In this document: in pieces, positions 1-11,794 of the stretch
Position numbering within the stretch: the stretch's first letter is position 1
Layout: the number at the start of each line of letters is the position of its first letter
Assembly (NCBI GenBank): GCA_020348445.1
Contig: CP070751.1
Coordinates: 1,314,055-1,326,568 of the forward strand
Reading direction: 5' to 3'
DNA from: Thermoplasmata archaeon
Lineage (GTDB): Archaea > Thermoplasmatota > Thermoplasmata > GCA-020350865
DNA: 12,514 nt
Position numbers and translations under genes: made by a program
The notes under the pieces: model-generated
The model's input: only the letters and a program-made list of their open reading frames with translations
Told to the model about the DNA's origin: nothing
Databases searched by the model: none

Positions 1-718
1 GACAGTAAGAACCATGAAGCGCAGATTTAAAACCAAGATCCCCATCTCGACACTCAACAACTGGATCAAAAACTATGGAGACGAGCTCCCCGCAACAAAG
101 CTCAGAAAGAAGTACACCCTCGACCCCAACCAGACAATCAAAACAAGACGCCTCTTCCACCCCCAACCCTACCTATTCAAGGTCCACACCCTAAAGCTCA
201 ACATCAAAGGCAAGCAGTTCCCTGAACTCAAACAGTACATCAACGGCATGCTTAACAATCCAATGGACCATCTTTTCCAGTCAAAGAAGGTCCTACGGGT
301 ATCAGAATTAGCAAACACCATAAATCTTCCCAAGCCAAATGTAAGATTAGTAAAAAACAGTCCTGCATCAAGAATGACAGATCTAGCACTGGAACTTGCC
401 AAGACAAAATCAGAACGTCACCAAAAGGTAGAAGAATTCTTCCTGGTAAATGACTCAGCCACTGTAGCGGTTGAGGTTCCGGTCTACCTAACTGAAAAAG
501 AATCAGGATTCAAAAAGCCCCTCACAGGTCACATCGACTTGATCCAGGTAAGGGGGAATCGTATACACATTTTGGACTACAAGCCAGAGAAGGGAGGAAA
601 TGTGGAAAACCAGCTCTCACTCTATGCAAAATGTCTGAAAAAGAGAACAGGATTATCAAATATCACATGCGCGTATTTTGACGAGAATATGTATTTTCAG
701 TTCACACCATATTATTGA
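1..718 (+). CDS. HTH + PD-(D/E)XK (RecB-like) nuclease protein, copy 1; 5' end lies outside the window
   Basis: The window begins in-frame at (AT)G ACA GTA AGA ACC ATG, equal to MTVRTM in copies 2 and 3, so the true start is upstream. HTH helix ISTLNNWIKNY; nuclease motifs E-VPV...GHIDL...DYK...QLSLYA. Confidence 0.9.
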   Translation, partial: TVRTMKRRFKTKIPISTLNNWIKNYGDELPATKLRKKYTLDPNQTIKTRRLFHPQPYLFKVHTLKLNIKGKQFPELKQYINGMLNNPMDHLFQSKKVLRVSELANTINLPKPNVRLVKNSPASRMTDLALELAKTKSERHQKVEEFFLVNDSATVAVEVPVYLTEKESGFKKPLTGHIDLIQVRGNRIHILDYKPEKGGNVENQLSLYAKCLKKRTGLSNITCAYFDENMYFQFTPYY

Positions 719-1095: not shown

Positions 1096-4000
1096 ATGAA
1101 AAAAGAGACAGGGAAATTATCGAATTTTATTATTGTCGGTATGCTTGTTCTGGGTTCGTTCTTGGCAATGGCCGGACCTTTGGCCACGATAACGGCCAGC
1201 GCGGACGCAGGAATAGATCAGGTCGTGGATGTCAATACCATTGTTAATTTTGATGGGTCAGGCTCCTTTGGTGTGGGTGACCTGGAATATACATGGTATT
1301 TTAGGGACGGAACAATAACCACAGTTGATTCCCCCTACATAGCACACACATATTCAGAGGAAGGAATTTATGAAGTCGGGTTGCTTGTCAAGGATTCCAA
1401 CGGTTACTATGACCTTGATACTGTTCAAATAACTGTGAAGAATTATTACCCAGTAGGAGACCCAGGTTTTGACAAGGTTGCAAATGAAGATCAAATTGTA
1501 AATTTCGATGCTTCTGCCTCGTCCGATCTCAACAACGATATCGTATCCTATGAATGGGACTTTGGGGACGGTACAAGTATGACAGGAATAAGCGCTTCAA
1601 ATGTATACGAAGATGAAGGCACCTACTACGCAAAACTCAAGGTGACAGACAACGATGGGGCTTACGATGAGGATTTAATACTTGTGACAGTAAATAATGT
1701 TGCACCTTCTGCAGATGGGAGAGGCAACAACGAGGTTGACGATGATGTAACGATCTATGAGGACGAACAAGTAACCTTCGATGCTTTTTTGAGCTCTGAC
1801 ACACCCTCCGATGTGCCACTTTTGAAATACTCATGGGATTTTGGGGACGGTTGCATGGGCTCTGGGATCACATCGGCGCACACCTACACAAAACAAGGGA
1901 TTTATATGGCTATTCTGAAGGTAACGGACGACAATGAGGCTTTTGCCATGGACACTATCATGATCAATGTGATCAATTCTCAACCAGTCGCTGATGCAGG
2001 TTTGGATCAAGCAGTCAACGAAGGATCATCCTGTTTCTTCGATGGAAGCGGCTCGTCAGATACTCAGTCTGATGAACCTCTGCTTCTTTACTCCTGGGAT
2101 TTTGAGAAGGACGGAGCATACGATGATACCGGCTGGTATTCAAAATATTCCTGGTGGGACAACGGTCCTATAGAGAATGCATTGAAAACAGAAGATGATG
2201 ATGGTGCTGCGCAGCAAGATAACAAAAAGATCACGGTAAATAATGTGGCGCCTTTACCGGGAATATTCAATTACAGCACATCTGAGATAACGATCGTGAA
2301 TTTCAGTTTGAGGGTAACAGGTGAGAAATATCATGATGTGCAGGCCACGCTTTATGAGGATTCGACGCAGATAGGCTACATGCAGGTGATAAGGGCCCCA
2401 GGAAACCCAAATGAGCAAATGGAATTCATCTACAATGTCGAAATACACTCTGAGAATACCTATGAGGCGAAGATCATCTACACTCCAGAAGATGACCCGA
2501 TCAACGGTCAGATAAAAGGCGCATCGCCCTGCTGGTTCAGTCTTTATCTTGAGGATGGGAACAAGTTCACGTTCTTCCGATCTTTCAATGTGAACAAGCC
2601 GGATGAATGGGAATGGACCATAGATTTGAGCAGTATCAGAAAGATGACATTCGATGCTGAGATATACGATCCAGGAATGGACATTGTGACCTTCGGCTGG
2701 GATTTTGGAGATTCGTCACCAATGGTGACTCGCTCATATTCGCCAGGCGGCGATCATCCCACAAAGGTATGTGATATGGTGATGCATGTCTATGTTCTTC
2801 CCAAGGTTTACACCGTTGTATTGAATTCATTTGATGATGACGGTGCCCACAGCATCTATGCTCTTATTCTGACCAATACACCTGACTCAGTAACATTGGA
2901 TAATCTTGCACCGAGAGCCCAGGCGTTCAGCAATAGAAGTACAGCTTTAGAAGATGAAGAGTTCGAGTTCTTAGGCTCAGGAATAGATCTTTTGAATGAT
3001 GGATTGACATATAGTTGGGATTTTGATGATGGCCATTCAGAAACAGGTCAGGTTGTTAACCATTCATATGATGATGAGGGAATTTATCTTGTGACATTGA
3101 CTGTAACAGATTCATTGGGCGCGCATGGAAAGGACTATATCTTCGTGAAGGTAACAAATGCACATCCTATTGCAGAGGCAGGTCAAAACCAGGTTGTGAG
3201 CGAGGATGATGTTGTCAAGTTCTGGGCATTTGATTCCTGGGATACGATTTCTGATTTACCTTTGCTGAGCTATGCCTGGGACTTTGGGGATGGAAGCAAA
3301 GGCTGTGGTATCACGACGGATCACATATACACGAAGAAAGGCGTGTACACAGTAACCTTGACTGTTCAGGACAACAACGGAGCTATGAGCAAAGATATCG
3401 TAAACATTACAGTAAATAATCCTGCTCCATACGGCATTTTGATGGTTGCAGAGCCAAACGCAAAAGAGGACGAGCTCATACACTTCAATGGCAGCGCTCA
3501 AGACACCGCATCTGATGAACCGCTGCTTGCTTTCAACTGGGACTTTGGTGATGGCAAAATAAGCTACGGAACTAATGTGACGCATTCGTATTCTTTGCCA
3601 GGCTTATATGAAGTGGAATTGACGATCACAGACGATGATCTAAGCTCGGCAAACAAAAGCATCTCAGTAATGGTGGTTAATGTGTATCCTACGGGTTTTG
3701 CAGGCGCAACTCATGTTGAGCTGTACGGACCTGCAATGACAGTTGAATTTGAAGGCAGAGGCTTTGATACGTTTTCAGATGGATCTTCCCTTAACTATTC
3801 ATGGAATCTGGGAGGAGGTGATTTTGAATATTCCCAAACCATAAACATGGATTTCACAGCCACAGGCATTTATGACGTGAGTTTTGAGGTTAAAGACGTT
3901 CATCTTGGATCCAGCTCTACGATAATGATAAGAATCGATTTTGTTCTGGATTCTGATGGAGACATGATGACAGACGAGGATGAGCAAGCCAAAGGCACTG

Positions 4001-6498
4001 ATCCATTTCTATGGGATTCAGATGGCGACGACCTAATAGATTACTGGGAGGTGTATTATTATTCTACAGATCCACAGCTTCCCGATACAGATAACGATGG
4101 AATGGATGACTGGGAGGAAATTACGTTTATCGGGTTCACAGATATCGATGAGGATGGAATATTCAATCCCTTGGATTGGGACAGCGACGGGGATTGGATC
4201 AGGGATGGTATGGATACCCACCCGATGTTGTACAACGATGTTGATGGCACTCCCATAACCAGGGATGCGATCTCCGTAAGCAATACTATCGGGTATGGTG
4301 TGAGTGTTATTATGTATGGTGGGTTCTCCTACGATAAACCAACTCTTTCAGATATCACACCCCCCGTTAAAATAGCAGGAGAAACCGGTATCTATGTAAG
4401 GGTGCAAACCATGGCATCACCACCATTCAATGCTCAAATAAGAATTAGGTACGATAAAAATGCAATTCCAGGAGGCATTGCCGAGGAAAGACTCAGGCTT
4501 TTCGAGTGGTCCTCCGTAGAGAACAAGTGGCTTATCGTTTCAAACTCAGGTGTTGATTTAACACACGGCTTTGTTTGGGCAAAAGTCTCATATTTCACGG
4601 ATTACGGGATTGGCGATATCGGTCTGGTGGATTCTGACGGCGACGGATTAAATAATTGGCAGGAGATCAACACAAAATACACTGCCAAATTTGTTGGAGG
4701 AGGGCTTTCACCGACCTACTATTCCGGTCCACTGTACGTAAAAAACCGCAGGATACAAATCCAAATTCCACCTCAAAATATATATGGAAATAAAGGGGCA
4801 GTGGACCTGTTCGGCCTTGGGTTTAAGAAGGCTGACTTTGCGATTGACGACACATGGAGGTTAACCAACGGAGGATATTTAGAGTATGCCAAGGTCTATG
4901 TTTCTGAGGTCTATAACGCAATCTCTGCAATAATGACTTTTCAATTCACTGGGAAGGATAAATATATGCGAATTGACGTCAGGGGTTTCACGGACCCCTT
5001 TAATCCAGATACGGATTCCGATGGATTTTTGGACGGTGACGAACTCAGTAAATATAAAACAAATCCAATCGATACAGACACCGATGACGATCGTATAAGG
5101 GATGGGAGCGACTTGGACCCATTAGTAGATTTGCATATTATAGTTCATATCAAGGAAATATTGGAAATAGACCGTATAGACACCTGGCCTTTCGGAATTC
5201 GCAATAATGGCGATTTCTATGCAAAGGTTAATATCTATGGTAAGTGGCATAAAAGTCCAGAATATGGGGGTATGGCTCATGGATATCCTAACTACTTCGC
5301 TTCTCAGGATATACCGGATAATGTCCAAAATATATACATAAAGATCGAGCTATGGGATGCTGACTGGCCCAGTGCAGACGACCAGGCGGACATAAGCCGT
5401 TCGGGGAAAACGCTGGATTTGACTTATGATGTGAGGACGGGAATGTGGAGTGGCGAGGACTCGCTAAATGATAGAAACGGTCTTGGACATGCGAGCGGAA
5501 CTGAAGATGGCAGCAACAATAAGAATGAGGGCGATGTAGACATATGGTTCGATATATATCAAAATGATTATGATAACGATGGATTAGCATATTGGAAGGA
5601 AGTGCACAGTCTTGGTACAAATCCAAAGTCCACGAATGGTGACTCAGATGGGGATGATATGGCGGATTGGTACGAAGTCAGATACGGGTTTAACAGATTG
5701 GACCCCTCTGACGCTCAGAGCGATTCCGATGGAGACCATCTTACTAATCTAAAGGAGTATCAGGTTGGAACAGATCCGAGATTCTTTGAAGTGAATCTCG
5801 TGGTATCTTTAGATTGGGACGCCTCTGAAAGTTATATGGACAAATATGTAAGTGGAATGAGAAAGGCATCAAATTTTCTATATGATGTAACTGATGGATA
5901 TCTATATTTCAGATGTGTATTCATATATGATAATGAGGAAAATTGGGATGAAGCAGATATTAGGGTTTACAACGGGACAGCTTGGAAAAATGATCAACCT
6001 CATTGGCCCCAAGCCAAAACAGGGGGATTTGACAAAGGAGGTTTTATCACCATGCCTCAATACTTAAATCCCTACGGATTTAATATCCGTTATGGTCCCA
6101 CCCGGAAAGAGTACTATAAAGCAATAGTTCATGAAAGCGGGCATTATATTATGCACAGTTATGATGAGTACTGTCGTTGGAGTGATACAGAATGGGGTTG
6201 GGTAAAGATTCCCTCATCGAGAAGACCTCATACTTTCATGAACGACGCGTTATTGTATTCAGAGGCCAGCACCCCGACAACCTATAAAAAGACAAAATAT
6301 CATATAACCGCACAATGGGAAGAAGCTGGGATGTCTACCTGGGAATCGTTTTTCTACAATTATACTAATAGGATATGGTTCGATCTAGATAAAAATGGTG
6401 TCGATGATACAATGTTTCTGAATTCATATACCACCGTCTCGGGACCAACCATAACTGTTGATGGAGGCTTTACGATCGTAAAAACATACAATACATAG
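1096..6498 (+). CDS. Secreted/cell-surface 1800-aa protein: signal peptide, ~9 PKD domains, ~11 bacterial TSP3-like Ca-binding repeats, C2-like beta domain, C-terminal CLCA-like zinc metalloprotease domain
   Basis: Basic then hydrophobic N-terminus (MKKETGKLSNFIIVGMLVLGSFLAMAG). Repeated PKD signatures (YxWDFGDG...HxYxxxGxYxVxLxVxD). DxDxDG...E...TDP repeats. C-terminal HESGHYIMHSYDEY motif preceded by ASNFLYDVTDGYLYFRCVFI. Confidence 0.9.
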   Translation: MKKETGKLSNFIIVGMLVLGSFLAMAGPLATITASADAGIDQVVDVNTIVNFDGSGSFGVGDLEYTWYFRDGTITTVDSPYIAHTYSEEGIYEVGLLVKDSNGYYDLDTVQITVKNYYPVGDPGFDKVANEDQIVNFDASASSDLNNDIVSYEWDFGDGTSMTGISASNVYEDEGTYYAKLKVTDNDGAYDEDLILVTVNNVAPSADGRGNNEVDDDVTIYEDEQVTFDAFLSSDTPSDVPLLKYSWDFGDGCMGSGITSAHTYTKQGIYMAILKVTDDNEAFAMDTIMINVINSQPVADAGLDQAVNEGSSCFFDGSGSSDTQSDEPLLLYSWDFEKDGAYDDTGWYSKYSWWDNGPIENALKTEDDDGAAQQDNKKITVNNVAPLPGIFNYSTSEITIVNFSLRVTGEKYHDVQATLYEDSTQIGYMQVIRAPGNPNEQMEFIYNVEIHSENTYEAKIIYTPEDDPINGQIKGASPCWFSLYLEDGNKFTFFRSFNVNKPDEWEWTIDLSSIRKMTFDAEIYDPGMDIVTFGWDFGDSSPMVTRSYSPGGDHPTKVCDMVMHVYVLPKVYTVVLNSFDDDGAHSIYALILTNTPDSVTLDNLAPRAQAFSNRSTALEDEEFEFLGSGIDLLNDGLTYSWDFDDGHSETGQVVNHSYDDEGIYLVTLTVTDSLGAHGKDYIFVKVTNAHPIAEAGQNQVVSEDDVVKFWAFDSWDTISDLPLLSYAWDFGDGSKGCGITTDHIYTKKGVYTVTLTVQDNNGAMSKDIVNITVNNPAPYGILMVAEPNAKEDELIHFNGSAQDTASDEPLLAFNWDFGDGKISYGTNVTHSYSLPGLYEVELTITDDDLSSANKSISVMVVNVYPTGFAGATHVELYGPAMTVEFEGRGFDTFSDGSSLNYSWNLGGGDFEYSQTINMDFTATGIYDVSFEVKDVHLGSSSTIMIRIDFVLDSDGDMMTDEDEQAKGTDPFLWDSDGDDLIDYWEVYYYSTDPQLPDTDNDGMDDWEEITFIGFTDIDEDGIFNPLDWDSDGDWIRDGMDTHPMLYNDVDGTPITRDAISVSNTIGYGVSVIMYGGFSYDKPTLSDITPPVKIAGETGIYVRVQTMASPPFNAQIRIRYDKNAIPGGIAEERLRLFEWSSVENKWLIVSNSGVDLTHGFVWAKVSYFTDYGIGDIGLVDSDGDGLNNWQEINTKYTAKFVGGGLSPTYYSGPLYVKNRRIQIQIPPQNIYGNKGAVDLFGLGFKKADFAIDDTWRLTNGGYLEYAKVYVSEVYNAISAIMTFQFTGKDKYMRIDVRGFTDPFNPDTDSDGFLDGDELSKYKTNPIDTDTDDDRIRDGSDLDPLVDLHIIVHIKEILEIDRIDTWPFGIRNNGDFYAKVNIYGKWHKSPEYGGMAHGYPNYFASQDIPDNVQNIYIKIELWDADWPSADDQADISRSGKTLDLTYDVRTGMWSGEDSLNDRNGLGHASGTEDGSNNKNEGDVDIWFDIYQNDYDNDGLAYWKEVHSLGTNPKSTNGDSDGDDMADWYEVRYGFNRLDPSDAQSDSDGDHLTNLKEYQVGTDPRFFEVNLVVSLDWDASESYMDKYVSGMRKASNFLYDVTDGYLYFRCVFIYDNEENWDEADIRVYNGTAWKNDQPHWPQAKTGGFDKGGFITMPQYLNPYGFNIRYGPTRKEYYKAIVHESGHYIMHSYDEYCRWSDTEWGWVKIPSSRRPHTFMNDALLYSEASTPTTYKKTKYHITAQWEEAGMSTWESFFYNYTNRIWFDLDKNGVDDTMFLNSYTTVSGPTITVDGGFTIVKTYNT

Positions 6499-6586: not shown

Positions 6587-6707
6587 ATTTCACAAAGGGC
6601 TCCGCCCTTTTAATCCCGCTAAAAATTAGTAAACAAAAATATTTTTATATCTCATTCACAAAAGGCTACGCCCTTTTAATCCCCAAAAAAATTTAGTAAC
6701 CAAGAAT
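6587..6707 (+). repeat. Two tandem ~55-65 bp repeats, each with a mini-hairpin followed by TAATCCC
   Basis: AAAGGGC-TCC-GCCCTTT-TAATCCC (6594-6617) and AAAAGGC-TAC-GCCCTTT-TAATCCCC (6660-6684). Both are preceded by TTCAC and followed by an A-run then TTAGTAA. Periodicity 66 bp. A degenerate third start (TTTTCACGAAGGC) lies at 6721. Confidence 0.85.
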
Positions 6708-6746: not shown

Positions 6747-6919
6747 AAAAAACCGCCCCCATCACCCGAGGATCGTAACTCCCCCCTCAAAAACCGCCAC
6801 ACATACCCCCTCTGCGCACCCAAAACCGACCCCATCTCCCAAATCCCGCAAAAACCCCAAGATTCCCACCACACATACCTCCTCTGCAAGGCCCAGAAAC
6901 CCCCCAAATCGCGGGATTA
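6747..6919 (+). repeat. C/A-rich conserved non-coding block, copy A (internal ~72-bp duplication)
   Basis: 6861-6919 is 58/59 identical to 10527-10585. ACACATACC(C/T)CCTCTG occurs at 6799 and 6871. Confidence 0.9.
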
Positions 6920-6968
6920 GAGGGACGCAGCCAGCGCATCAAAATCGCACCAAGGATCATACCCCCTC

Positions 6969-7127
6969 ATCTCACGCAAATCGTATACGAAATACGAGTG
7001 ATAGATACCCGATCCCATTTACGAAACTCGTGAGATGCACGCCAAATCCTTTACGAAACGCGTGAGATACTTCGTATACGAAAACCGTGCGATATCTCAC
7101 GAAGATTGTATACGAAATTCGTGCGAT
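6969..7127 (+). promoter_or_regulatory. Array of 17-bp sites (consensus TACGAAANNCGWGNGAT); putative operator/iteron/end-binding sites of copy 2
   Basis: Direct units at 6986, 7020, 7052, 7077, 7111; inverted units at 6969-6985 and 7094-7110; palindromic cores TCGTATACGA. The repeats are seen directly; the binding-site function is inferred. Confidence 0.75.
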
Positions 7128-7160
7128 AGATTGAAATATCCACAATCCATCCACCAGCTA

Positions 7161-8177
7161 ATGGCAAAGAAAAAAACCCTAACCACCATGTTCGAGGATT
7201 TCAAATTCGAACCACCAGCATGCCCGCACTGCGATTCGAAAGAGAAAGTAGTCAAAAGCGGCACAAGATCCCTTAAAGAGGATACAGCGTAGGTTTTTCT
7301 ATGCAGAACCTGCAACAAGCGCTTTTCCGATCGTAAACTTCCAAAGACTTCATACCCACCCAAAGTCATTCTTACCGCGCTAACATATTACAACCAAGGA
7401 CACACTCTCGATATGACGGTACGCACCATGCGTAGAAAATACAAGACTAAAATCCCGATAACAACCCTCAGCAGTTGGATTTCACGTCATCAAGAAGAAC
7501 TCCCATTCACCAAGCTCAGAAAGAAGTACACCCTCGACCCCAACCAAACAATCAAGACAAGGCGCCTCTTCCACCCACAGCCATACCTCTTCCGGGTCCA
7601 CACACTCAAACTCAACATTAAAGGCAAACAGTTCCCGGAACTCAAGCGATACATAAACGATATGTTGAACAATCCAATGGACCACCTTTTCCAATCCAAG
7701 AAGGTTCTGCGGGTATCAGAATTAGGAAACACAATCAACATCCCCAAACCCAATATCCGATCTGTAAAAGACAGCCCCGCATCCAGGATGACGGATCTAG
7801 CATTGGAACTTGCTAAGACAAATTCAGAGAGGCATCAGAAGGTGGAGGAGTTCTTCCTGGTAAACGACTCGGCAACTGTTGCGGTGGAGATCCCCGTTTT
7901 CCTCACCCATAAAGAAGCAAGATCCCACGGAATCTCCATTCCTAAGACCCTTACAGGCCATATAGACATTCTCCAGGCAAGAAGTAACAGAATCCATATC
8001 CTAGATTACAAACCAGATGCTCAAAGCGAGAAACTGGCAAGGGAGCAACTCACACTATATGCAATCGCATTAGGTAAGAGAACCGGGATCGTTCCTTCGA
8101 AAATTATATGTGCATATTTCGATGAGAATGGATATTACCAATTCAAACCAGGGCATGTTTCCAAGGTTCATGGTTAA
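7161..8177 (+). pseudogene. Zn-ribbon + HTH + PD-(D/E)XK nuclease protein, copy 2, interrupted by an in-frame TAG at 7290-7292 (338 codons if read through)
   Basis: ATG 7161 gives MAKKKTLTTMFEDF...CPHC...DTA*VFLCRTC...LTYYNQGHTLDMTVRTM, colinear without frameshift with intact copy 3 and in frame with ORF 7413-8177. GHID/DYK/QLTLY motifs are retained. Confidence 0.85.
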
Positions 8178-8251
8178 TACCATTGATGTATAAAATATAC
8201 TTAGATAATTACGACAAAATTAAGTAAAACAGATTATAGGATGGATTGGAC

Positions 8252-8791
8252 ATGTCAAAAGTGTACGAATTTAAAGCGGCTTTTAAACGTCGAAAAGGAC
8301 TTTGGCGCCGAATCCAGATCAAAGATGATCAAACTCTCAAGGATTTCGACAGCATCATGCGTAAAGCATTTAATCATGATAAGGATGACCATCTGAGCGA
8401 ATTTTTCCCTGGAAGAGCATGGAGGTCAAAGGGATTTGGCGAGATAGATCCCACTGGAAAAGGTAAGGGCTCTAAATTGCGAATTAAAACACTTGGATTG
8501 AGCGAGGGGGACAAACTGGAATATGTCTATGATTTTGGAGATGACATCCAGCATATTATTACCTTTGAGAAGATGGTAGAACCCAAGAAGGGAACATCAT
8601 ATCCCCGCATTATTGCCAAGAACAAGCCAAAATATAATTACTGCGAAGCATGTAATAAACAGGGTAAAAAAACGAAAGCCACATGGGTATGTATTGAATG
8701 TACAAATGAGAGGGAAAAAGCTTTGTTTCTTTGTGATGATTGTTTGATAAAGGAGCATGAGGAACATTATGCAGACGAGCTGACATACTAA
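8252..8791 (+). CDS. pRiA4b ORF3-like family protein (also known as IS1096 passenger TnpR-like) with a C-terminal Cys/His zinc-finger-like tail
   Basis: Family-typical motifs WRRIQI...TLxDF...AF...DHLxEF...L...GDKLEYVYDFGDDIQHII; tail CxxC...CxxC...CxxC...H. ATG 8252 is preferred over TTG 8246. Confidence 0.8.
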   Translation: MSKVYEFKAAFKRRKGLWRRIQIKDDQTLKDFDSIMRKAFNHDKDDHLSEFFPGRAWRSKGFGEIDPTGKGKGSKLRIKTLGLSEGDKLEYVYDFGDDIQHIITFEKMVEPKKGTSYPRIIAKNKPKYNYCEACNKQGKKTKATWVCIECTNEREKALFLCDDCLIKEHEEHYADELTY

Positions 8792-8890
8792 AAATTCTTT
8801 ATGTTGTTAGTTTTATGACTACGCTATAATTAGTTATGGAAGAAAACATATGAAGGTAAAACTTCATGAATCCTGATAAAATTCAGAGAC

Positions 8891-8933
8891 GAAAGTTTAA
8901 ATAGGATGTATAGCATTTGTATTACATGGTGAT
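8891..8933 (+). promoter_or_regulatory. Archaeal-type promoter (BRE/TATA) and RBS of the TA operon
   Basis: GAAAG-TTTAAATA (8891-8903) about 35-40 nt upstream of ATG 8938; GGTGAT at 8928-8933. Confidence 0.6.
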
Positions 8934-8937
8934 ATAT

Positions 8938-9180
8938 ATGGCGAGTTCGCAGCTGAATGTAAGGACTTCTGCTACCCTAATCGAGGAATTAGATGCTTTG
9001 GTTAACCGCGGTTTTTTTAGAAACAGAACCGAGGCTGTAAACGAGGGTATAAGGCTTTTGATCCGCAGGTATAAGGCTATGAAGATTGCAGAGAAGATCG
9101 ATAAAATAGCCATGGGAAAGAAAAGCAAAAAAAGTCTCACAGAGGCCTTATTGGAGTTACGGGACGAGGAAGACGCATGA
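8938..9180 (+). CDS. vapB: Ribbon-helix-helix (CopG/Arc/MetJ-type) antitoxin, VapB-like
   Basis: QLNVRT...LIEELDALVNRGFFRNRTEAVNEGIRLL is an RHH pattern. Start follows the GGTGAT RBS. ATGA overlap with the downstream PIN gene. Confidence 0.8.
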   Translation: MASSQLNVRTSATLIEELDALVNRGFFRNRTEAVNEGIRLLIRRYKAMKIAEKIDKIAMGKKSKKSLTEALLELRDEEDA

Positions 9181-9626
9181 GTGAATATATTGACACAAGC
9201 GTTGTAGTGAAATGGTTCAGGGAAGGTGAAGATCACCGAGACGAATCGCTAAAACTGCGTGAGCGTATAATAAACTTCGATTGCGAATTTATAATGTCGT
9301 TTTTTGGTGTAATGGAATTGGTAAGGGCTCTCGTGAAAAATAAATATCCGAAAGATAAAATCGAGGACGCTTTTCAGAGTATGATGGATTTGTACAAGAT
9401 TGATGCAATAAAAAGCGTAGGGATTGAGGAGGCTCTATATCGAGCCAAGGATATTTCTATAGAGCTAAATCTTTTTGCAGGTGATGCTCTTCATCTGGCA
9501 TCGGCGATACAATGTGGATGTAAAATATTCTGGTCAGAAGACAAACATCATTTGAAGGCTTCTACAATAAAATTCATGAAGCGATATAACATAGAGATAA
9601 GGTCACTCTCACAGATTAAAATATAG
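9177..9626 (+). CDS. vapC: PIN-domain ribonuclease toxin, VapC-like
   Basis: YIDTSVVVKW...MELVRAL...GDALHLASA...SEDKH acidic PIN motifs; 149 aa; translationally coupled to the RHH gene. Confidence 0.88.
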   Translation: MSEYIDTSVVVKWFREGEDHRDESLKLRERIINFDCEFIMSFFGVMELVRALVKNKYPKDKIEDAFQSMMDLYKIDAIKSVGIEEALYRAKDISIELNLFAGDALHLASAIQCGCKIFWSEDKHHLKASTIKFMKRYNIEIRSLSQIKI

Positions 9627-9671
9627 AGAACACTCATGAGAGCTTAATTAAATAGAATTCTTGGACTTTTA

Positions 9672-9890
9672 ATTTCACAAAAGGCTCTGCCCTTTTAATC
9701 CCCAAAATTTAGTAACTAAGAATTATTTAGATACGTTCTACCGAGGGGTCACACCCCTCTAACCCCATTTAAAATTACTACCAAACGTCCAGGGGGAGAA
9801 ATCCCCCTGTAATCCCCTTTTTTTTTATAGCCTCCCTTGTCGGCTGACCGAATAGGAAAATTTCCGAAGGGCTATTCCCCTTCTAATTCC
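9672..9890 (+). repeat. Cluster of four mini-hairpin+TAA(T/C)(C/T)CC motifs
   Basis: AAAAGGC-TCT-GCCCTTT-TAATCCCC (9679-9703), whose flanks match the 6587/6654 copies; GAGGGGT-CAC-ACCCCTC-TAACCCC (9743-9766); CAGGGGGA-GAAA-TCCCCCTG-TAATCCCC (9790-9817); GAAGGG-CTATTC-CCCTTC-TAATTCC (9866-9890). Confidence 0.85.
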
Positions 9891-9937
9891 GCAAAAGAAT
9901 ATAAACGGGGAATTACATTATCACTTGGGCGATAGCA

Positions 9938-10270
9938 ATGGAAGAACGCCATAAGGAATTTAGGAAATGCAGAAAGGTGATAAAGATCTGGTTGAAAAAA
10001 GGGAGAGCTGAGGCTCAGAAGATCCCGGGTGCTAAAAAGTATATCTGGAATCTTGAGGCCAATCACTATGTTACCTTTGACGGCTCCCAATTGTTTGTAG
10101 AGGAATTTACTGATGTTACAGTTCCTCTCATGGTACTATGCGGAACAGGATACGTTAAGCGCGAGGAAACCGAAATAGGATATATTTATATTCCTAACGG
10201 TGATTACAGAAAATTCTTTGCTGACATCCTACCAAGGGCTCTGCCCTCTAACCCCGAAAAAAAATTATAA
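9938..10270 (+). CDS. Hypothetical protein (110 aa), possibly a captured or truncated gene fragment
   Basis: Protein-like composition with no recognisable family and no clear RBS. The frame is open from 9905, and the last codons run through a hairpin motif (10234-10255). Confidence 0.5.
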   Translation: MEERHKEFRKCRKVIKIWLKKGRAEAQKIPGAKKYIWNLEANHYVTFDGSQLFVEEFTDVTVPLMVLCGTGYVKREETEIGYIYIPNGDYRKFFADILPRALPSNPEKKL

Positions 10271-10321
10271 ATTAATAATTACTATAGACGTTCTTACGAG
10301 GGGCTACTCCCCTCTAACCCC
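10234..10321 (+). repeat. Pair of mini-hairpin+TAACCCC motifs, a direct repeat of the pair at 9679-9766
   Basis: AGGGC-TCT-GCCCT-C-TAACCCC (10235-10255) and ACGTTCT..GAGGGG-CTACT-CCCCTC-TAACCCC (stem 10298-10314); 66-bp spacing versus 64 bp in the 9679-9766 pair. Confidence 0.8.
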
Positions 10322-10410
10322 AAAATGAAATTTTTCATTACCTTTCCGGTCTGAGGCTTAAGACGATCCTGTTGTCTTATCATAACCCGCCAGGCTCCCC
10401 ATTCCCGCAG

Positions 10411-10585
10411 CCAAAAAACCGCCCCCATCCTCCAAATCCGGCAAAAATCCCCAGATTCCCGTAACACATACCCCCTCTACTCGGCCAAAAACCGAATCCA
10501 CCTCCCGAATCCGGCAAAAAACCCCAGATTCCCACCACACATACCCCCTCTGCAAGGCCCAGAAACCCCCCAAATCGCGGGATTA
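10411..10585 (+). repeat. C/A-rich conserved non-coding block, copy B (two ~73-74 bp tandem units plus conserved tail)
   Basis: Units start CCAAAAA(A)CCG at 10411 and 10485; ACACATACCCCCTCT at 10464 and 10537; tail 10527-10585 is 58/59 identical to 6861-6919. Confidence 0.9.
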
Positions 10586-10634
10586 TAAGGGCTCACCCAG
10601 TGCACCAAAATCCATCTCCGAACCACAATCCACC

Positions 10635-10793
10635 AACCCCCGCAGATGGCATGCCAAATACGAGCGTTAAAAAGACAAAACCATGTGCCAAATACGGGAG
10701 GTGAGCCCTGAAATTGGTGCCAACTGCGAGCGTTAGATGGCATGCCAATTACGAGCGTTAACTCCCGCAGATGGCATGCCAATTACGAGCGTT
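10635..10793 (+). promoter_or_regulatory. Array of 17-bp sites (consensus TGCCAANTRCGRGCGTT); putative operator/iteron/end-binding sites of copy 3
   Basis: Direct units at 10652, 10686, 10718, 10743, 10777; inverted units at 10635-10651 and 10760-10776; palindromic cores TGGCATGCCA. Function is inferred. Confidence 0.75.
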
Positions 10794-10825
10794 GATATCA
10801 AATAAGTCCAGGACAATTCCCTGTT

Positions 10826-11794
10826 ATGTCCAAGAAGAAAACCCTAACAACAATGTTCGAGGATTTTCACGAGGAGCGCCCCTCATGCCCTAAATGCTCA
10901 TCATCTGAATACGTTATCAAGTCTGGCAGTCGAACAGTCCGAGAAGAAACAGTTCCTTTATACTTTTGTAAATCCTGCCAAAAGCGGTTTTCGGACCGTA
11001 AGCTCAGTCACACCTCTTATTCACCAAAGCTCATTCTTTCAGCGCTAACATACTATAATATGGGCCACACATTAGATATGACAGTAAGAACCATGCGCAG
11101 AAGATACAAAACAAAAATACCCATTACAACCCTTAGAAACTGGATCAAGCGTTATGGAGAAGAGCTTCCATTCACCAAACTAAGAAAAAAATACACCCTT
11201 GACCCCAACCAGACAATTAAAACAAGGCGCCTCTTCCACCTCCAACCCTACCTCTTCCGAGTTCACACCCTCAAACTCAACATCAAAGGCAAGCAGTTCC
11301 CAGAACTAAAGCAGTACATCAACAATATGCTGAGCAATCCAATGGACCACCTTTTCCAGTCTAAGAAGGTCCTAAGAGTGTCAGAACTTGCAAACACAAT
11401 CGCCCTCCCAAAACCAAATATCAGATCAGTAAAAGACAGCCCGGCCTGTCGGATGACGGACCTAGCATTGGAACTTGCTAAGACAAATTCAGAGAGACAT
11501 CAGAAGGTGGAGGAGTTCTTCCTGGTAAACGACTCGGCGATAGTAGCAGTAGAAGTTCCAGTCTACCTAACAGAAAAGGAATCAGAATACCACAAACCTC
11601 TCACAGGCCACATAGACCTCATCCAGGTCAGAAGCAACCGCGTACATATCATGGACTACAAGCCCGACACGAGCGGGAATGTTGTAAACCAACTTCTATT
11701 ATACGCAAAATGTCTTAAAAAGAGGACAAGACTGACAAATATCATATGTGGGTATTTTGACAAAAATGCTTATTTTCAATTTAAACCCCCCTGA
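10826..11794 (+). CDS. Zn-ribbon (IS1 InsA-like) + HTH + PD-(D/E)XK (RecB-like) nuclease protein, copy 3, intact
   Basis: CPKC-x-VIKSG-x-CKSC Zn ribbon; HTH ending TTLRNWIKRY; C-terminal E-VPV, GHIDL, DYK and QLLLY motifs; 322 aa. Confidence 0.9.
   Translation: MSKKKTLTTMFEDFHEERPSCPKCSSSEYVIKSGSRTVREETVPLYFCKSCQKRFSDRKLSHTSYSPKLILSALTYYNMGHTLDMTVRTMRRRYKTKIPITTLRNWIKRYGEELPFTKLRKKYTLDPNQTIKTRRLFHLQPYLFRVHTLKLNIKGKQFPELKQYINNMLSNPMDHLFQSKKVLRVSELANTIALPKPNIRSVKDSPACRMTDLALELAKTNSERHQKVEEFFLVNDSAIVAVEVPVYLTEKESEYHKPLTGHIDLIQVRSNRVHIMDYKPDTSGNVVNQLLLYAKCLKKRTRLTNIICGYFDKNAYFQFKPP

Follow-up and report, generated by a model that had tools for sequence, protein, structure and literature searches.

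Three tandem copies of a gene for a predicted DNA-binding nuclease lie in the window analysed here, a 12,514-nt stretch of a 5.16-Mb scaffolded archaeal genome of the Thermoplasmata (G000; the stretch is G000:C1:1314055-1326568), and an array of 17-bp units stands directly upstream of copies 2 and 3. These arrays are probably the cognate sites of the protein encoded next to them, with specificity classes written in a helix of that protein and with the unit nearest to the gene (unit 5) as an auto-operator. The geometry of the arrays, their array-specific letters, the co-variation of these letters with the helix, the adjacency of a TATA-like box and the occurrence of arrays at other genes are seen directly. 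The protein encoded just downstream, in which an IS1-InsA-like zinc ribbon and a three-helix helix-turn-helix (HTH) domain are fused to a RecB/Cas4-like PD-(D/E)XK nuclease, would bind the array, and its residues 104 and 105, at the start of the third (recognition) helix, would read unit letters 2 and 4. The proposed classes pair Arg-Asn with TGCC, Asn-Asn with TACC or TCCC, Ser/Asn-Ser/Gly with TACG or TACA, and Asn/Asp-Asp with TCCGG. The operator would comprise unit 5 together with its inverted partner, both placed directly before the TATA box of a gene that is probably leaderless, and the remaining units would serve cooperative or higher-order binding.

Array 2 (6969-7127, forward strand, type TACG..GAT) has direct units starting at 6986, 7020, 7052, 7077 and 7111, the last spanning 7111-7127, and array 3 (10635-10793, forward strand, type TGCC..GTT) has them at 10652, 10686, 10718, 10743 and 10777, the last spanning 10777-10793, exactly where the initial annotation had placed them. 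The other elements of its description were recovered as well: a start-to-start spacing of 34/32/25/34 shared by both arrays, a distance from the start of unit 1 to the ATG of 175 nt for copy 2 (ATG at 7161) versus 174 nt for copy 3 (ATG at 10826), and inverted units before units 1 and 5, which a position weight matrix locates at 6969-6985 and 7094-7110 in array 2 and at 10635-10651 and 10760-10776 in array 3. The type letters TACG..GAT are present in all five direct units of array 2. The letters TGCC..GTT described for array 3 are found in every direct unit but unit 2, which ends in GGT instead. The inverted units share the type letters of their own array, as described (TACG/TACA..GAT in array 2, TGCC..GTT in array 3). 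The scaffold TNCNAANNNCGNGNGNT matches the window ten times, solely at the ten direct units, with 0.04 matches expected by chance and none in 200 shuffles; a two-unit pattern has 8, 6 and 8 matches in three sister genomes and none when read backwards. The matrix also reveals extra distal inverted units on the reverse strand, one at 6761-6777 (TACG; TACGATCCTCGGGTGAT) and one at 10500-10516 (TGCC; TGCCGGATTCGGGAGGT), each matching the type of its own array. The latter lies 135 nt before array 3, and this offset recurs at other arrays. A C/A-rich leader of ~72-bp repeats (6794-6968) is described around the distal inverted unit of array 2.

The 17-bp unit is built on an invariant scaffold (T1 C3 A5 T8 G11 G13 G15 T17), with array-specific letters at positions 2, 4, 10, 12, 14 and 16. 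Extraction of full-geometry arrays gave 41 distinct ones, comprising 225 units, in which positions 1, 3, 5, 8, 11, 13, 15 and 17 are near-invariant and within-array agreement at the six variable positions exceeds that of all 2000 shuffles. The unit is a bipartite scaffold (T-n-C-n-A, spacer, G-n-G-n-G-n-T) carrying a few type letters. The first-half types known are TACG, TGCC, TACC, TCCC, TACA and TCCGG, and the endings are GAT, GTT and GGT. Before homologs from sister genomes and metagenomes, direct units lie at about -175/-141/-109/-84/-50 from the ATG and inverted units at -192 and -67; relatives of 40-52% identity have upstream arrays too, with unit sequences of their own. At the nuclease genes of L001, L013, L016 and L028 (helix class Asn/Asp-Asp), the arrays are of the TCCGGAAT type and the sequence at the unit 5 position mismatches the unit. 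An orphan array of this type, located away from any nuclease gene at G000 1399649-1399790, keeps the fifth unit, and the G000 assembly holds no protein of that class.

The intact form of the protein is encoded by copy 3 (10826-11794, forward strand; 322 aa, P0001). It consists of a zinc ribbon (C21/C24/C48/C51), an HTH with helices at 67-78, 83-94 and 100-113, and a C-terminal nuclease part with the motifs D264, D277-Y-K279 and Q289..Y293; across 59 homologous sequences, D264, D277-Y-K279 and Q289 are invariant and Y293 nearly so. The AlphaFold2 (AF2) model of copy 3 has a pLDDT of 90.7. In this model, helix 100-113, which contains residues 104-105, is part of an HTH of the transposase/Myb type; this HTH matches transposase, Myb and terminase-type domains at Z 5-6.8, and residues 178-322 align with the DinG N-terminal nuclease, MGME1, Cas4 and AddB (Z 6.7-8.8). 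A Foldseek search with the model gave weak matches (best E 2e-3), and scores for PF12705 (cut-off 22 bits) are 28.8 for copy 2, 22.8 for copy 1 and 20.7 for copy 3. By its catalytic motif, its QxxxY motif and its modelled fold, the gene product belongs to the PD-(D/E)XK (RecB/Cas4-like) nuclease superfamily. It is not Cas4 proper: its TIGR00372 score is 19.3 bits (cut-off 65), no cysteine is invariant outside the four of the zinc ribbon, and the nuclease part has C308 alone, nearly invariant, rather than the four cysteines of an Fe-S cluster. Nor is it an IS1 family transposase, since it reaches 22.6 bits with NF033558, whose cut-off is 100, in a match limited to residues 21-113, and its C-terminal part is PD-(D/E)XK. 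PADLOC and PHROGs gave weak Cas4 or exonuclease matches at most.

The family is present in 36 of the 401 genomes sampled from the phylum Thermoplasmatota. Nanoarchaeota, Woesearchaeota and a single bacterial relative also came up in the homologue search; IMG/VR and PLSDB gave no relatives. The literature searched contains no account of this architecture, on which a Cas4 phylogenomics paper is silent. An N-terminal peptide, KKKTLxTMFEDF (copy 3 residues 1-13, window 10826-10865), is almost invariant across all homologs of this fast-diverging family and is predicted to be disordered (pLDDT <50); the stretch may be conserved as DNA or RNA instead of protein. In L017, for example, the N-terminal 125 residues group with one clade and the whole protein with another, which suggests that paralogs have exchanged nuclease domains and DNA-binding modules, the latter together with their arrays.

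In 24 loci examined as DNA, the array letters vary in step with the recognition helix, in line with the correlation that had been proposed across homologs: residue 105 corresponds to unit position 4 and Arg104 to G at position 2. The helix motif T-L-X1-X2-W-I, with an invariant W106, covers residues 102-107 in the third HTH helix. Counted over 22 loci with both a protein and an array, Asn105 occurs with C at position 4 (11/11), Ser, Gly or Asp105 with G or A at position 4 (10/11), and Arg104 with G at position 2 (5/5). The three tandem copies of the window represent three helix classes: Asn-Asn in copy 1 (codons 56-61), Ser-Ser in copy 2 (codons 7470-7475) and Arg-Asn in copy 3 (codons 11135-11140). 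When all variable protein columns were scanned for mutual information (MI), column 105 was the top predictor of position 4 (MI/H 0.70), and columns 1-60, which lie physically between the array and codon 105, reached at most 0.55. Codon 105 is thus farther from the array yet more predictive, which argues against plain linkage. On the tree, the residue-105/position-4 states change at least 5-6 times and the Arg104/G2 states 3-4 times, never in opposite directions, and the residue/letter pairings recur in different N-terminal clades.

Predictions fixed before the DNA was fetched held for P0030, P0021, P0004, P0044 and P0042. The prediction for P0064 held by half, position 4 being C as called and position 2 being C, not the called A. 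Proteins of a new Ser-Gly class (P0007, P0049) go with TACG, and L090 and L091, at 50-52% identity, also obey the rule. Among over-extended open reading frame (ORF) calls that read through unit 5, four obey it and a fifth (P0094) does not. The difference at position 16 (GAT/GTT) tracks a Val/Ile column (31) of the zinc ribbon perfectly; this column is a lineage marker, so the difference follows the N-terminal lineage and is inseparable from linkage. A zinc-ribbon code sought for positions 12, 14 and 16 gave lineage-like links only, between Val/Ile31 and position 16 and, in part, between Lys/Arg39 and position 12.

An alignment of 21 upstream regions places a TATA-like box 1-3 nt past unit 5, ~24 nt before the ATG. 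At array 2 the box lies at 7131-7139 on the forward strand (TTGAAATAT), 3 nt past unit 5 and ~24 nt before the ATG, and is kept in homolog loci; at array 3 it lies downstream of unit 5, at 10797-10805 on the same strand (ATCAAATAA). Archaeal promoters have a TATA box about 26 nt before the start site, with a BRE element upstream of it. With this standard geometry, the TATA-like box would act as promoter, the mRNA would probably be leaderless, and unit 5 would overlap the BRE region. Judged from this placement, unit 5 is a likely auto-operator of the nuclease gene. Binding, regulation and any cutting or recombination are all inferred.

The arrays extend well beyond the nuclease genes. A scan of G000 found some 20 to 25 arrays or fragments, compared with four close and two distant gene copies; VapBC-like, RelE/ParE-like, Fic, ATPase and aspartyl-protease genes stand behind intact arrays. 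The unit scores of orphan arrays equal those of arrays linked to nuclease genes, and orphan arrays occur in sister genomes too. The initial annotation had matched each paralog to an array of its own, and the co-variation of letters and helix agrees with this; the arrays are not private, since intact ones precede unrelated genes. In that annotation's proposal, separate arrays would let several elements coexist. In G000, eight arrays or fragments of mixed types share one orientation in a 25-kb gap-free island (4617000-4645000) that lacks a nuclease gene and has some of its genes on the opposite strand. Orphan array types agree with the resident proteins of G000 for three classes, as far as its incomplete assembly goes; its TCCGG array is without a matching protein in that incomplete assembly.

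Arrays can also be split by cargo. In six relatives (L011, L057, L058, L061, L064 and L065), units 1-4 sit 0.7-2.2 kb upstream of a lone unit 5, which stays at its place before the TATA box and nuclease gene. The cargo between units 4 and 5 comprises Fic, HicAB, DUF433-PIN or other genes, and both parts of the array are of the same type. In L122, near-identical array ends at 1-175 and 1381-1556 flank an RHH-PIN cassette. Two other genomes carry copies of the window's own RHH-PIN (VapBC-like) cassette (8881-9766) at 85% identity, a higher conservation than that of the adjoining nuclease genes (69-79%); the copy lies upstream of a nuclease gene in one of these genomes and downstream in the other. 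RHH-PIN and Fic cassettes of the same kind adjoin arrays of different types. Mini-inserts of ~95-110 bp are found at head-to-head palindrome centres in three array types and at two different array positions (G000 3027561-3027661, 1116330-1116428 and 4953418-4953462; L028; L122:1232-1326). They share their ends (TTTAAATTA.CGATTG ... GTGCACTG) and an internal GTGCAC hairpin, and each looks like a tiny element that targets palindrome centres. As a pattern, the arrays are sites of frequent module exchange, and the patterns fit site-specific cutting and homologous recombination between repeats alike. Because unrelated accessory genes are also bordered by complete or fragmentary arrays, these would be shared module borders for gene exchange. 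The nuclease may start such exchange by cutting palindromic unit pairs, and we hypothesize that it drives the exchange of accessory genes.

Several observations weigh against arrays that are cognate, helix-read sites with an operator at unit 5. The two-residue rule has exceptions in L020/P0066, with Asn-Ser and TCCC, and in P0094, with Asn-Ser and an inferred TGCC; it fails in the subfamily of 40-48% identity, and in the distant subfamily a single helix class (His-Ser) goes with TATT, TACG and TTCC units. Column 104 ranks only fifth for position 2 in the MI scan. A sign test on independent pairs gives p 0.5, with 2-3 contrasts on well-supported branches, and because supported contrasts are few, the statistics rest on non-independent counts and on the out-of-sample calls. 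Many arrays are hybrids of two types, and G001 has TACC-type arrays and no Asn-Asn protein found in its incomplete assembly. Orphan arrays have no TATA box beside unit 5, and therefore an operator role cannot account for them. The cargo junctions fall near the boundary of unit 4 and the inverted unit or at unit edges, at no one fixed base; since they are not at one fixed phosphodiester, ordinary homologous recombination could yield the split arrays. In L122, the nuclease gene that begins behind the first array is fused after 13 codons (MLKKKTLITMFED) to the RHH ORF, and module exchange thus reaches into the highly conserved 5' coding end of the nuclease gene.

The behaviour of the arrays as exchange points could mean that they are attachment-type recombination sites of an integron-like cassette system, in which a matched nuclease cuts palindromic unit pairs, host repair swaps genes and autoregulation is secondary. 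We consider this possible but unlikely. It agrees with the toxin-antitoxin, Fic, ATPase and protease genes behind arrays or fragments, with island arrays that are co-oriented whatever the gene direction, with the six relatives whose cargo is bounded by units of one type, with the placement of one RHH-PIN or Fic cassette beside different array types, with the ~100-bp mini-insert at palindrome centres in two array positions, and with the invariance of the nuclease motifs. But the junctions differ by several bases, one of them lying within coding sequence, RecB/Cas4-type domains usually act on DNA ends, PRiA4_ORF3 in the window has no flanking units, no circular intermediate, empty/filled-site pair or recombinase is known, and unit-level homologous recombination suffices for the patterns. 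A stronger form, slightly more doubtful again, is an archaeal nuclease-based counterpart of the integron: several orthogonal, helix-encoded classes of RecB-like nuclease per genome would cut their own palindromes and drive cassette capture and shuffling, and array-only clusters would, with the same reservation, be the equivalent of integrase-less attC clusters. Clusters of attC that lack an integrase (CALINs) are reported in Archaea by Ghaly et al. 2022 (PMC9668308). The arrays resemble attI/attC sites and CALINs in being co-oriented repeated sites between small accessory genes, many of them toxin-antitoxin genes, with some clusters lacking the enzyme gene; the multi-site layout beside the enzyme gene recalls attI. 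Unlike in integrons, no tyrosine recombinase is found among the window ORFs, the units are double-stranded direct and inverted repeats rather than folded attC hairpins, junctions are imprecise, and recombination at array sites is a proposal only.

The weak IS1 resemblance of the N-terminal part (NF033558, E 8.5e-5; NF050000, E 3.5e-3) raises the question of whether gene and array form one end of an IS1-derived element, with the DDE domain replaced by PD-(D/E)XK and with units that are sub-terminal transposase sites as in Mu/Tn7. IS1 InsA, which combines a zinc finger with an HTH, binds the inverted repeats of IS1 and is a repressor of its own promoter; TnsA of Tn7 is a PD-(D/E)XK nuclease, and the ends of Mu and Tn7 carry several irregularly spaced transposase sites. 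The protein shares with InsA the N-terminal zinc ribbon and HTH (a weak match) and a predicted binding site that overlaps its own gene's putative promoter, and shares with Mu/Tn7 the multiple irregularly spaced sites, a transposase-type HTH (resembling the Tc3, SETMAR and Mu transposase DNA-binding domains, Z 5-5.6) and the PD-(D/E)XK fold; the irregular multi-site layout suits such ends, and the gene is multi-copy and labelled 'transposase-like' by sources. This origin is nevertheless improbable. No unit scores above 5 bits on either strand in 7128-10499 or past 10794, so that no second end was found there; neither target duplications nor sharp borders of an element were seen; arrays occur without the gene; and the family was not found in IMG/VR or PLSDB. 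A discrete mobile element with two ends was not found. Unlike InsA, the protein has a RecB/Cas4-like nuclease instead of a DDE domain, an array of five plus two sites rather than one inverted repeat per end, and a score (22.6 versus 100 bits) far below the family cut-off; unlike at Mu/Tn7 ends, there is one array per gene, with no paired inverted end and no DDE partner. A shade less probable still is that the uniform letters reflect concerted evolution by conversion or slippage, the link to the protein being mere co-inheritance of neighbouring DNA. Short repeats are prone to conversion, hybrid arrays show recombination, position 16 follows the N-terminal lineage exactly, and the sign test is not significant. 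However, unit-specific central letters are kept between orthologous arrays even where type letters differ, which conversion would erase; the best predictor, codon 105, is farther from the array than weaker columns; pairings recur across N-terminal clades; and most calls on unseen loci held. Highly improbable, finally, is a role of the arrays as replication origins of the iteron type that belong to integrated plasmids, in which direct repeats bind the initiator and an inverted-repeat operator lies at its promoter. Five direct 17-bp repeats and additional inverted ones, immediately before the gene of the presumed binding protein, are reminiscent of the P1, F, pSC101 and RK2 replicons. Against this, more than 20 arrays stand in one chromosome, the 34/32/25/34 spacing is out of helical phase, the leader is C/A-rich and not A+T-rich, Pfam and NCBIfam scans detect no initiator domain or Rep family, and PLSDB and IMG/VR yielded nothing. 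As in iteron/Rep systems and in lambdoid operator/repressor immunity, arrays of ~17-bp sites adjoin the gene of a binding protein, here a predicted one, and the classes into which site letters and recognition helix have jointly diverged could prevent cross-talk. Unlike in those systems, the protein lacks the fold of a replication initiator or repressor and has a nuclease that appears to be active, and arrays also lie at many unrelated chromosomal genes.

The remaining features of the window concern the state of the other copies and the intervening DNA. Copy 2 (7161-8177, forward strand), a zinc-ribbon/HTH/RecB-like nuclease gene, is broken, being a pseudogene or very recently disrupted, and its array is still intact. 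This follows from an in-frame TAG at 7290-7292 in a genome with no PylS above cut-off and no tRNA-CUA, on which grounds a pyrrolysine reading of the codon was also rejected; relatives have Gln or Pro at the site. Copy 1 (2-718, forward strand) is seen from residue ~85 on, because the assembly breaks there: a 100-N scaffold gap (G000 1313956-1314055) is flush with the left edge of the window, upstream of it. The gap hides whatever precedes copy 1, for which the initial annotation had predicted a third array; the sequence placed further upstream is unrelated coding DNA. The G000 assembly has 353 N-runs, each of exactly 100 N, and several of them adjoin an array or a nuclease gene; one is 46 nt away from the array at G000 4953463. 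It follows that the assembly breaks at these repeats and that scaffold order in their vicinity may be arbitrary. Copies that are 5'-truncated for biological reasons were discounted, as most such copies stop at contig ends. The stretch from copy 1 to array 2 includes a gene (1096-6498) for a protein of 1800 aa with about nine PKD domains, unusually large as cargo in such a layout. A 39-nt hairpin motif (a GGGC..GCCC stem followed by TTTTAATCCC) occurs in seven copies at 6589-6693 and 9674-10331, between cargo and the next leader, and an inverted relative lies at 6911-6932, immediately upstream of array 2. An Rfam scan of the window gave no match, and sigma-70 and terminator scans of it were uninformative.

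In conclusion, the correspondence of two helix residues with two site letters provides a simple recognition rule for an uncharacterised family of DNA-binding nucleases, and could supply naturally orthogonal site/protein pairs as a tool. To our knowledge, the gathering and exchange of accessory genes in archaea are poorly understood. In these sediment archaea, the arrays recur as an element that organises toxin-antitoxin, Fic and ATPase islands, and if the nuclease does act at the arrays, they would form part of a cassette system that works without a tyrosine recombinase.

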